Positions 246 through 858 of a stretch of DNA of 9,488 bases are shown one piece after another. The position numbers were made by a program, and so were the translations under genes. Within the stretch, counting starts at the first letter, position 1; the number at the start of each line of letters is the position of its first letter. This stretch comes from a virus (lineage: Duplodnaviria > Heunggongvirae > Uroviricota > Caudoviricetes). Under the pieces are notes generated by a model. The model made no database searches. It worked only from the letters and a program-made list of their open reading frames with translations, and was not told where the DNA came from. Location: IMG/VR virus record IMGVR_UViG_2778261027_000012; one strand, given 5' to 3'.

Positions 246-276
246 GAATTTAGAATAGCCTAAGAGTTATGGTCAA
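246..276 (-). promoter_or_regulatory. Candidate leftward early promoter (pL-like), sigma70 type
   Basis: On the minus strand: TTGACC (plus 271-276), 18-bp spacer, TAAATT (plus 246-251). A CTTAGG operator-like half-site (plus 259-264) lies inside the spacer. Confidence 0.25.
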
Positions 277-374
277 GCTTTTTGTGTAGAAAAACCTAAG
301 CTTCTTGATGTAAAAAACACAAGTATTTGAAAGTTTGTGCTTTTTATTACAGAGAGTTGCGAAAAAAAGGGGGG

Positions 375-782
375 TTATTTATTTGCGCTTCTTTTGCGAG
401 CTTTGAGTAGTTCTTCAAAAAGTTTGTTGAAATTCTCAACTCGAGCACGCATCTCTGACAACAGAGCCTTTTGCTCTGACTCAGGCAGTGCGTCGAACAG
501 TTGAAGCAACTCTTTTTGATCTTCTGTCAGATTGACTGGCTGATTATCTGGGATCGGTTCGCCTGGTTGCTTATCTTCATCTCCAAAAAGAAGCCAAGTC
601 GGCGAGCACTGAAGCGCCTGGCTCAGTGCGAATAATCTCTTCCCCGCTGGCTGTGTTTCATCTCTTTCCCATTGAGAAATTGTTACGTGAGCCACTTTGA
701 CCAGCTTACCTAATGCGGCCTGAGACAGTTTTAATTTTTTTCGCCTGTATAAGAGGCGAGCACCGAAGGTTTCGTTTTTCAT
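375..782 (-). CDS. dicA: CI-type phage repressor, HTH_XRE family, DicA-like (135 aa)
   Basis: ORF 375..782 minus. N-terminal HTH (LKLSQAALGKLVKVAHVTISQWERDE) and C-terminal region (LFALSQALQCSPTWLLFGDEDKQP...RARVENFNKLFEELLKAR) closely resemble what I remember of E. coli DicA. Divergent from a Cro-like gene, as expected for a repressor. Confidence 0.85.
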   Translation of the reverse strand: MKNETFGARLLYRRKKLKLSQAALGKLVKVAHVTISQWERDETQPAGKRLFALSQALQCSPTWLLFGDEDKQPGEPIPDNQPVNLTEDQKELLQLFDALPESEQKALLSEMRARVENFNKLFEELLKARKRSANK

Positions 783-858
783 ATTAGGTAATTCTAATTT
801 TTCTTGACTTAGGTTTCTCTACGATCTAGTTTCCTTAGGAAAATCTAAGGGGTTCGAT
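783..858. promoter_or_regulatory. Divergent immunity control region (pR-like and pRM-like promoters plus operator repeats)
   Basis: 76-bp intergenic region between the divergent repressor and Cro-like genes. Plus strand: TTGACT (804-809), 17 bp, TAGTTT (827-832). Inverted repeat CCTTAG-N6-CTAAGG (833-850) sits between the -10 and the Cro SD. The 15-mer CTTAGGTTTCTCTAC (808-822) recurs in inverted orientation at 286-300. Confidence 0.5.

Follow-up and report, generated by a model that had tools for sequence, protein, structure and literature searches.

Three operators, Oa, Om and Oc, have been described at the dicA-dicC-dicBp region of the Qin prophage of Escherichia coli K-12 (Bejar et al. 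1988, as cited in PMC10448788; Yun et al. 2012, PMC3441716). Oc (TTGTTAGTCATAACTAACAA, TTGTTAG-N6-CTAACAA) confers DicA-dependent repression in vivo, which is abolished by one base change, and the transcription start site (TSS) of dicCp has been mapped by 5'RACE; Om and Oa in isolation did not mediate DicA binding (data not shown in that study) (PMC3441716). Repression by DicA is relieved by Rem, the Qin antirepressor (PMC10448788). The sites bound by the repressor of phage P22 are 18 bp long and rotationally symmetric, with contacts at positions 2 to 7 and 12 to 17 and a noncontacted center at positions 8 to 11 (PMC4267663). The location of DicA binding at dicB was stated as unknown in the Reg-Seq study (eLife 2020; PMC7567609).

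Here we analyzed the immunity region of a 9,488-nt stretch of viral DNA (9.5 kb, hereafter the window). The repressor gene (375-782, minus strand) encodes a DicA homologue of 135 amino acids with an HTH_3 domain, which is 63% identical to K-12 DicA over 131 amino acids and whose residues 2 to 69 match the N-terminal domain of P22 C2 (phmmer E = 1e-21; PDB 1ADR, 2R1J and 3JXB). Pfam returned HTH-family matches only, with no Peptidase_S24 match and no other peptidase or autocleavage domain in the repressor. The primers of a study performed in O157:H7 match this allele exactly, and for exactly this allele the study reported that overexpression of DicA decreased dicB expression, while overexpression of DicC decreased dicA and increased dicB expression; the operators were not mapped there (PMC6915034). 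The dicC homologue, a member of the P22_Cro family (859-1085, plus strand), is a pseudogene in the window because one T is absent from the run at 883-887, a 1-nt deletion causing a frameshift, and the two-protein switch is thus not intact here. The intact allele is found in PPompW phage records that are 99.8% identical (Pfam P22_Cro, E = 3e-13).

The leftward operon lies on the other side of the repressor gene, and the window contains the start of its first gene (1-110, minus strand), with the start codon at 110-108. According to the RefSeq annotation of the identical locus of E. coli E2863, this operon continues with ydfC, the DicF RNA and dicB. DicF was recovered with an Rfam match of 76.7 bits (L001, 7493-7544); in the window itself, searched at the gathering threshold, Rfam returned only sok and two tRNAs, with nothing in 1-1200. 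Gene order and repressor size are equal to those of K-12 Qin, as is the downstream location of DicF and dicB, and a homologue of the Rem antirepressor is present.

The original prediction was that a 15-mer, CTTAGGTTTCTCTAC at 808-822 (plus strand), recurs in inverted orientation as CTTAGGTTTTTCTAC at 286-300 (minus strand), with additional half-sites nearby. All of the sequences concerned were found in place: the two 15-mers are identical at 14 of 15 positions, with one mismatch, CCTAAG lies at 259-264, and 833-850 reads CCTTAGGAAAATCTAAGG, that is, CCTTAG-N6-CTAAGG. The repeat is therefore genuine, but the 15-mer is only part of the repeating unit, which is an 18-bp, two-fold-symmetric palindrome with the core TTAG-N6-CTAA and the half-site nCTTAGR. 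Searching the whole window for this core, which K-12 Oc as published has in common with it, yielded five matches with at most one mismatch (250-263, 286-299, 784-797, 809-822 and 835-848). All five are located in the two intergenic regions beside the repressor gene, three at OR and two at OL, and the remaining 9.1 kb contained no match at the same threshold. The initial set of both 15-mers and 833-850 was correct, but it had overlooked 784-797, and what had been taken for an extra half-site at 259-264 belongs to a complete palindromic site with its core at 250-263. The centers of the sites are 25 (OR3-OR2), 26 (OR2-OR1) and 36 bp apart, the last distance being that of the OL pair, and OL and OR are separated by about 0.5 kb; these distances are compatible with pairwise cooperativity between adjacent operators and with octamerization over a long range, as in lambda.

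At both OR and OL, the window can be aligned base by base with K-12 Qin and with a P22-type phage whose C2 N-terminal domain is identical to that of P22 and from which the P22 operators were read. In this alignment, the operators occupy the same registers, and the repressor start codon and the -35 elements of the rightward and leftward promoters, pR and pL, are invariant. The most symmetric site is OR1 (833-850, CCTTAGG-AAAA-TCTAAGG; 6 of 7 positions), which spans the predicted start site of pR, reaches into the beginning of the dicC Shine-Dalgarno sequence and is colinear with Oc (TTGTTAGTTATGACTAACAA) and with P22-type OR1; its exact 18-mer is carried by 71 IMG/VR contigs. OR2 (807-824, ACTTAGG-TTTC-TCTACGA, core 809-822), which contains the right 15-mer, corresponds to Om, has a degenerate right half (CTAC) and is a better palindrome than Om. 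It lies within the pR spacer with its first bases inside the -35 element, matching the register of P22-type OR2 (TTG[ACTAAAGATTCCTTTAGT]). OR3 (782-799, TATTAGG-TAAT-TCTAATT, core 784-797) adjoins the repressor start codon, is colinear with P22-type OR3 (AGTTAAGTCATCTTAAAT) and K-12 Oa (TTAGCTAATGCTAA), and is kept in all DicA-type loci. It includes a -10-like TAGAAT (796-791, minus strand) that may belong to the promoter of the repressor gene, the mRNA of which is predicted to be almost leaderless.

The rightward promoter itself, equivalent to dicCp (804-832, plus strand; -35 TTGACT at 804-809, 17-nt spacer, -10 TAGTTT at 827-832), was placed by reading the sequence and by colinearity with K-12 and P22, dicCp being colinear with it. 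A consensus promoter scan detected pL but missed pR because of the weak -10 element of the latter, which matches the consensus at only 3 of 6 positions. The -35 TTGACT is invariant across four types (window, P22-type, K-12 and A34), and the TSS is predicted near 839-840.

At the leftward promoter (247-276, minus strand; the equivalent of dicBp), the scan predicted a -35 TTGACC at 276-271, an 18-nt spacer and a -10 TAAATT at 252-247; the TSS is predicted near 240. Its -35, GGTCAAG on the plus strand, is likewise invariant in the window, P22-type, K-12 and A34 types. OL1 (248-265, ATTTAGA-ATAG-CCTAAGA, core 250-263) lies in the pL spacer and overlaps the -10; it is colinear with P22-type OL1 (ATTTAAGACTTCTTAATT) and with TTAGCCATGACTAA of K-12, and its position is kept in all DicA-type loci. 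OL2 (284-301, GTGTAGA-AAAA-CCTAAGC, core 286-299), which contains the left 15-mer, lies upstream of the pL -35 at a distance of 9 bp and is degenerate in its left half (GTAG). Its P22-type counterpart, OL2 (TTGAAGAAAACTTAAATA), also combines one degenerate half with an AAAA center. Two sites thus flank the -35 of pL, as they do that of dicBp in K-12, where, however, three operators have been reported. No third OL site was found with one mismatch or less, and the position of P22 OL3 is without a matching site; GTAGAATTTAGAAT at 243-256 was considered for this role and rejected on account of four core mismatches. The proposed OR/OL geometry of a lambda-like switch was supported. The two 15-mers differ in their placement relative to the promoters, OR2 lying inside the pR spacer and OL2 upstream of the pL -35.

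The positions of the sites are conserved in eight genera, although the spacers between them have diverged; the loci concerned are those of Pantoea, Enterobacter, Erwinia, E. ruysiae, E. albertii, Buttiauxella, Citrobacter and Yersinia. The K-12, E. ruysiae and Citrobacter types retain the palindromes without having the 15-mer, and treating its absence from homologues as a refutation, as the original prediction had done, is too strict. OR2 forms a full palindrome only in the specificity group of the window, namely, in Pantoea, Erwinia, Enterobacter and E. coli O103, and outside this group its position retains only TTAG beside the -35. Among 43 distinct viral-contig sequences of the same type, which are related and hence not independent, none of the 48 positions predicted to be contacted varied, compared to 18 of the 81 other intergenic positions (Fisher p = 1e-4); this comparison left out OR1, which had served to select the contigs. 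To judge from their sequences, OR1 (833-850), OR3 (782-799) and OL1 (248-265) are the best and most conserved sites, while OR2 and OL2, the two 15-mers, are probably auxiliary sites that are weaker and of lower affinity.

In the heteroimmune E. coli A34 and 500010 loci, where the repressor carries the recognition helix GVSGSSISLWES, TTGAG-AAAA-CTCAA (TTGAG-N4-CTCAA) occurs at the same positions with conserved flanks, a concerted change of half-site and recognition helix. A further difference concerns position 2 of the site, which is C in the window (cTTAG..CTAAg) and G in K-12 (gTTAG..CTAAc). Residue 22 of the repressor covaries with this base: the window type and P22 have Ala there, whereas the K-12, E. 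ruysiae, Citrobacter and Yersinia types have Arg and, in each case, G at position 2. We tentatively suggest, as a possibility that we consider rather doubtful, that the nCTTAGR allele forms a specificity class of its own in the P22 C2/DicA repressor family and that residue 22, located where helix 2 begins, would read position 2 (C/T versus G). If so, the several DicA-type prophages found together in STEC genomes would not repress one another at OR1 and OL, although cross talk would still be possible at OR3, the core of which, TTAGGTAATTCTAA, is identical between types.

With P22, the window shares the 18-bp symmetric geometry with four central noncontacted positions, the homologous DNA-binding domain and three sites at OR. 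The order at OR (start codon, OR3, -35 TTGACT, OR2, -10, OR1, cro) and at OL (OL1, -35 TTGACC, OL2) is identical, the OR3-OR2 center spacing is again 25 bp, the partner protein, Cro, belongs to the same P22_Cro family as dicC, and pL of the P22-type phage (TTGACC-N17-TAAATT) has an identical -10 with a spacer that is 1 nt shorter. In contrast, OR2 and OR1 are 23 bp apart in P22 and 26 bp apart in the window, P22 has three OL sites (OL1-3) where the window has only OL1 and OL2, and the P22 half-site is ATTTAAG instead of nCTTAGR, so that the window type and P22 are expected to be heteroimmune. P22-type C2 has 216 amino acids and a LexA/S24-type cleavage domain, whereas the 135-residue repressor of the window ends in a short helical C terminus without such a domain. 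The leftward operon encodes an N-like antiterminator in P22, and ydfC, DicF and dicB in the window type. Finally, residues 44 and 46, which are E and N in P22, are Q and A in the repressor of the window; in P22, these residues tune the reading of the central operator bases (PMC4267663).

The resemblance to lambda lies in the divergent repressor and cro genes, the tripartite OR and the second operator cluster, which is found downstream of the repressor gene at the leftward promoter, but the folds and sequences of the lambda repressor and Cro are unlike those of the window proteins. Lambda sites are 17 bp long, CI is RecA cleavable, and OL and OR form loops over 2.4 kb; the window gives no indication of either cleavage or looping. 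The logic of mutual repression is common to both, and, as in the window, Gifsy-type prophages combine a short noncleavable repressor with a small antirepressor gene on the same prophage (PMC10448788).

Could the repeats be chance similarities in AT-rich intergenic DNA? CTTAGG alone is not enriched across the window (5 observed versus 2.9 expected), this stand-alone statistic being dropped as not significant, and short two-copy repeats were common in a repeat search. However, not one of 20,000 dinucleotide-preserving shuffles of the two intergenic regions alone reached five core matches, the shuffle mean for the 15-mer at up to three mismatches was 0.18 matches, and a second copy of the 15-mer with at most one mismatch is expected about 1e-3 times in 9.5 kb (by arithmetic that assumes uniform base composition). 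Together with positional conservation in eight genera and colinearity with the P22 and K-12 operators, these shuffles refute a chance origin, which we regard as practically negligible. Another explanation is that the sites are bound only by DicC or by a host nucleoid protein with a preference for AT-rich DNA (such as H-NS, Fis or IHF) and not by the DicA-like repressor. The intergenic regions are indeed AT rich (33% and 43% GC), a Cnu-H-NS complex antagonizes DicA at K-12 Oc (PMC3441716), Fis and Hfq have been reported as silencers of the region in K-12 (PMC10448788), and lambdoid Cro proteins use the same operators as their repressors. We nevertheless judge it very improbable, since dicA is required for repression at K-12 Oc (PMC3441716), the half-site and the recognition helix of the repressor change together in heteroimmune loci, and the 18-bp geometry agrees with that known for the homologous domain of P22 C2. 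Moreover, the sites are intact in the window although dicC is a pseudogene, and a sharing of sites by DicC would be compatible with repressor operators rather than opposed to them.

That only OR1, OL1 and perhaps OR3 are functional, with OR2 and OL2 unbound and kept as promoter spacer, UP-like sequence or P22-like relics, deserves more weight, although we consider it unlikely. Each of these two sites has one degenerate half-site (CTAC or GTAG), and at the OR2 position, the E. ruysiae, E. albertii, Buttiauxella and Citrobacter types show only TTAG beside the -35, beyond which the sequence is GC rich. The inactivity of K-12 Om, at the OR2 position, and of Oa in isolation (PMC3441716) suggests that the right 15-mer may bind weakly or only cooperatively. 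As OR2 overlaps the pR -35 and spacer, promoter function could also account for part of its conservation. The same does not hold for OL2, which is located outside the core pL promoter, so that promoter function does not account for its conservation. In addition, both 15-mers are almost unchanged in the Pantoea, Erwinia and Enterobacter relatives, the repressors of which are only 73 to 74% identical, and viral contigs of the same type retain them in 66 of 66 (OR2) and 63 of 66 (OL2) cases. Both sites coincide exactly in register with P22-type OR2 and OL2, the latter of which is similarly degenerate in one half-site.

The reading of the repeats as operators flanking a DicA-type repressor gene is thus supported by repressor homology, by colinearity of OR and OL, by identity of the core with that of K-12 Oc, which aligns with OR1, and by conservation with covariation of the recognition helix. 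Based on this sequence evidence, the motif very probably belongs to the operators of a prophage immunity switch that is P22-like and of the DicA/DicC type. The repressor, the divergent (frameshifted) dicC, pL with its ydfC-DicF-dicB operon and the five sites with the Oc core are all features of the Qin type, and the locus is an ordinary, well-resolved example of a known switch in a common defective E. coli prophage. In such a switch, repressor dimers would recognize 18-bp symmetric sites made of nCTTAGR half-sites around four central A/T-rich bases. Filling of OR1 (with OR2) and of OL1 (with OL2) would block RNA polymerase at pR and at pL, the latter presumably driving the ydfC-DicF-dicB operon, and OR3 would serve to shut off the repressor gene when the repressor is abundant or through the action of DicC. 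Filling of OR2 and OL2 would be assisted by the strong site next to each of them, as happens in P22 and lambda. We can only speculate that a repressor tetramer pairs OR2 with OL2, which match at 14 of 15 positions, looping out the 0.5 kb between them.

As the repressor lacks an autocleavage domain, induction is expected to proceed via a Rem-like antirepressor and not via RecA. A candidate is encoded at 6181-6441 (plus strand) by a gene whose product is 73% identical to K-12 Rem and is assigned by homology only. This Rem homologue is the likely induction route for the noncleavable repressor, whose repression it would relieve independently of RecA. No LexA box was found upstream of the rem homologue, and the five weak matches to CTGT-N8-ACAG in the whole window are within chance expectation.

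The immunity type was found in 751 of 5,426 complete E. coli genomes (about 14%). [quoted passage not shown] The operators of a lambdoid switch are a textbook concept, and the prediction of OR1-3 and OL1-2 at base resolution fills a small gap. An AT-rich hairpin followed by a U-run (311-346, minus strand; minimum free energy, -12.5 kcal/mol; z = -3.1), which separates OL2 from the stop codon of the repressor gene, may act as a weak terminator shielding pL from read-through of the repressor gene. The same interval in the Pantoea, Enterobacter and Erwinia relatives carries a hairpin with a GC stem and a T-run instead.

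The 15-mer that the original prediction placed on both sides of the repressor gene was recovered as CTTAGGTTTCTCTAC at 808-822 (plus strand) and, inverted and with 14/15 identity, as CTTAGGTTTTTCTAC at 286-300, and so were CCTAAG at 259-264 and CCTTAGGAAAATCTAAGG at 833-850. The repeat around the gene is real, but its unit is a palindrome with the core TTAG-N6-CTAA rather than the 15-mer: a listing of all local repeats showed that both 15-mer copies belong to this 14-bp palindromic core. Shuffled controls gave a mean of 0.18 matches to the 15-mer with up to 3 mismatches, and the pair is unlikely to have arisen by chance; the CTTAGG hexamer by itself showed no window-wide enrichment. 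Searching the 9,488-bp window for TTAG-N6-CTAA with up to 1 mismatch returned five matches (250-263, 286-299, 784-797, 809-822, and 835-848), all within the two intergenic regions flanking the repressor gene (375-782, minus strand), and at the same tolerance the core was absent from the other 9.1 kb. None of 20,000 dinucleotide-preserving shuffles of the two intergenic regions alone gave five matches.

We predict an 18-bp operator at each match: OL1 (248-265, ATTTAGA-ATAG-CCTAAGA), OL2 (284-301, GTGTAGA-AAAA-CCTAAGC), OR3 (782-799, TATTAGG-TAAT-TCTAATT), OR2 (807-824, ACTTAGG-TTTC-TCTACGA), and OR1 (833-850, CCTTAGG-AAAA-TCTAAGG). Together they give the half-site consensus nCTTAGR, in which 10/10 half-sites agree at T4, A5, and G6, and the centre-to-centre distances are 25 and 26 bp for the OR sites and 36 bp for the OL sites. 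The two 15-mers correspond to OR2 and OL2; in each of these two sites, and in no other, one half is degenerate (CTAC/GTAG). Judged by sequence, the five sites very probably constitute the operator set of a switch of the P22 immC/Qin dicA-dicC-dicBp type; this kind of switch is known already, and the operators of this allele have apparently never been written down before.

In K-12 Qin, Oc (TTGTTAGTCATAACTAACAA), the OR1 equivalent, mediates dicA-dependent repression in vivo, which is lost on a single base change, while Om and Oa, the OR2 and OR3 equivalents, are sequence-predicted sites without DicA binding in isolation (PMC3441716). Three operators at dicCp and three at dicBp were proposed by Bejar et al. 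in 1988, as cited in PMC10448788. Read from the locus, Oa is TTAGCTAATGCTAA, Om is TATGTTTTTGTTAA, and Oc is TTAGTTATGACTAA, and dicBp carries TTAGCCATGACTAA and TATGCTATAGCTAA, one on each side of its -35; these sites are all arranged colinearly with those of the window. The P22-type sites, read from a phage that shares an identical C2 N-terminal domain with P22, are AGTTAAGTCATCTTAAAT (OR3), ACTAAAGATTCCTTTAGT (OR2), ATTTAAGTGTTCTTTAAT (OR1), ATTTAAGACTTCTTAATT (OL1), and TTGAAGAAAACTTAAATA (OL2). In the OR and OL alignments, site registers agree between the window, P22-type, K-12, and one further type from E. coli, and the repressor start codon, the -35 of the rightward promoter pR (TTGACT), and that of the leftward promoter pL (GGTCAAG, plus strand) are invariant across the four. 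The window sites also share the geometry of the P22 repressor sites, which are 18 bp long and rotationally symmetric, with contacts at positions 2-7 and 12-17 and none at 8-11 (PMC4267663). The repressor has Q44 and A46 versus E44 and N46 in P22 repressor; in the latter, these residues control how the four bases at the operator centre are read indirectly, and an N46A mutant binds A-tract-centred sites only (PMC4267663); both OR1 and OL2 have an AAAA centre.

The ompW-locus prophage of E. coli E2863 is 100% identical to the window, and "PPompW" phage records, whose annotation names the genes dicA and dicC, are 99.8% identical; PPompW prophages are defective and act as integration hosts for Stx2a phages (PMC8112680). 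The repressor (135 aa), which has an HTH_3 domain and in which no peptidase domain was found, is 63% identical to K-12 DicA, and over residues 2-69 it matches the N-terminal domain of P22 C2 (E=1e-21). The divergent gene (859-1085) is a dicC homologue of the P22_Cro family, frameshifted in the window by loss of one T at the run 883-887 (T5 versus T6 in PPompW records) and likewise marked as frameshifted in the RefSeq annotation. The Cro-like arm is broken in the source strain, yet all predicted operators are intact. On the leftward side of the repressor gene, the source genome has a dicBF-type operon with a small ORF, ydfC, the DicF RNA, and dicB.

The comparison covered 11 loci of other species and 4 further E. 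coli loci. Pantoea, Enterobacter, Erwinia, E. ruysiae, E. albertii, Buttiauxella, Citrobacter, and Yersinia have TTAG-N6-CTAA where the window has OR3, OR1, OL1, and OL2, with divergence in the central site bases and in the DNA between sites. The full OR2 palindrome occurs only in the window's group (E. coli O103, Pantoea, Erwinia, and Enterobacter), where the 15-mer is nearly unchanged at OR2; the other groups keep just the TTAG adjoining the -35. E. coli A34 and 500010 provide a natural control, as their recognition helix (GVSGSSISLWES) differs, their flanks and promoters are as in the window, and TTGAG-AAAA-CTCAA-type palindromes occupy the window-site positions. Repressor residue 22 and operator position 2 show group-specific covariation, position 2 being G in the Arg22 types (K-12, ruysiae, albertii, Buttiauxella, Citrobacter, and Yersinia) and C or T with Ala22, in the window group and P22. 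We tentatively raise the possibility of a distinct specificity class set by these two positions, perhaps together with OR2-OL2 pairing. The 66 IMG/VR contigs of this immunity type yielded 43 distinct sequences, in which polymorphism was assessed with OR1 left out because it was the search key. Common polymorphisms were confined to the DNA between sites and, within sites, to the central or outermost positions, affecting 0/48 predicted contacted positions versus 18/81 others (Fisher p=1e-4, the sequences being non-independent).

Two site positions showed further features. At the OR2 position (equivalent to window 813-824) of comparison loci L006-L010 and L016, the right half is a GC-rich stretch, TATCCCGCGCA, conserved within the pR spacer in the E. 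ruysiae, E. albertii, Buttiauxella, and Citrobacter types; these four may work with two OR sites only, or the stretch may have another role. The OR3 core TTAGGTAATTCTAA (window 782-799) is shared without change between the window's immunity type and those of E. ruysiae, E. albertii, PK8276, and Yersinia (loci L006, L007, L011, and L016), whose OR1 and OL sites differ from the window's at the flanking specificity position, and OR3 could be a cross-talk point between co-resident DicA-type prophages.

On the minus strand, the predicted pL consists of TTGACC (276-271), an 18-nt spacer, and TAAATT (252-247), matching its P22-type equivalent (TTGACC-N17-TAAATT); OL1 is placed in the spacer and runs into the -10, and OL2 is on the upstream side of the -35, 9 bp away from it. 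The predicted pR (TTGACT at 804-809, 17-nt spacer, TAGTTT at 827-832) lines up with K-12 dicCp, a promoter with a mapped start site (PMC3441716); OR2 fills its spacer, and OR1 spans the predicted pR start site and the initial bases of the dicC Shine-Dalgarno. Inside OR3, a -10-like TAGAAT (796-791, minus strand) ends 8 nt before the repressor ATG, which, by analogy with lambda/P22 PRM and with the activation of dicA by DicA at Oc in K-12 (Yun et al., PMC3441716), suggests a nearly leaderless repressor mRNA made from a weak and probably activator-dependent promoter.

The main live alternative holds that OR2 and OL2 are unbound, in line with what was seen for K-12 Om and with OR2 having been lost from other types; it is improbable, given that both sites are strictly conserved inside the specificity group and lie in exact P22 registers and that OL2 is outside the core promoter. 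Exclusive binding of the sites by DicC or nucleoid proteins is poorly supported and highly improbable, and a chance repeat, also poorly supported, has a negligible probability.

In the favoured P22/Qin-type switch, repressor dimers on OR1 (with OR2) and OL1 (with OL2) would occlude pR and pL and so keep dicC, the replication genes, and the toxic dicBF operon silent, and OR3 would serve negative control of the repressor gene, by DicC or excess repressor. The primers of PMC6915034 match the window allele exactly; in that study of this allele, dicB went down on DicA overexpression, DicC overexpression sent dicA down and dicB up, and a dicA deletion was unobtainable. Because dicC is a pseudogene, the switch of the source strain is probably locked in the repressed state. 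Since the repressor lacks a cleavage domain and K-12 dicBp is not mitomycin-inducible but derepressed by Rem (PMC10448788), the inducer is likely, by analogy, a Rem homologue (6181-6441, plus strand), an unannotated "hypothetical protein" 73% identical to K-12 Rem, the antirepressor relieving DicA repression of dicBp (PMC10448788). Its gene lies just downstream of hokD/sok, the same as in Qin, and no LexA-box-like sequence was found upstream of it.

Between the repressor stop codon and OL2, an AT-rich hairpin with a 12-bp stem followed by a U-run (311-346, minus strand; z = -3.1) may insulate pL against read-through from the repressor gene; the same interval in the Pantoea, Enterobacter, and Erwinia relatives holds a terminator-like hairpin with a GC stem. 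The block 183-241, which falls within the 5' leader predicted for the leftward (dicBF-type) transcript, is ~90% conserved among heteroimmune E. coli types (K-12, A34, PK8276, and window) whose adjoining operators differ. No Rfam family matched the block, which could act as an RNA hairpin, as a site of processing, or as a site for a protein; at 221-234, shortly after the predicted pL start, it contains a perfect 6+6 palindrome, ACACCGTGCGGTGT. Next to the rem homologue, as in Qin, is a type I toxin-antitoxin module made up of a sok antisense RNA (5661-5810; 103.9 bits in Rfam) and the toxin gene hokD (5808-5963). Between the replication genes and hokD lie the adhesin gene paa (AcfC family, 4714-5472) and, beside it, a frameshifted fimbrial pseudogene (4020-4553), cargo typical of STEC/EPEC PPompW prophages.
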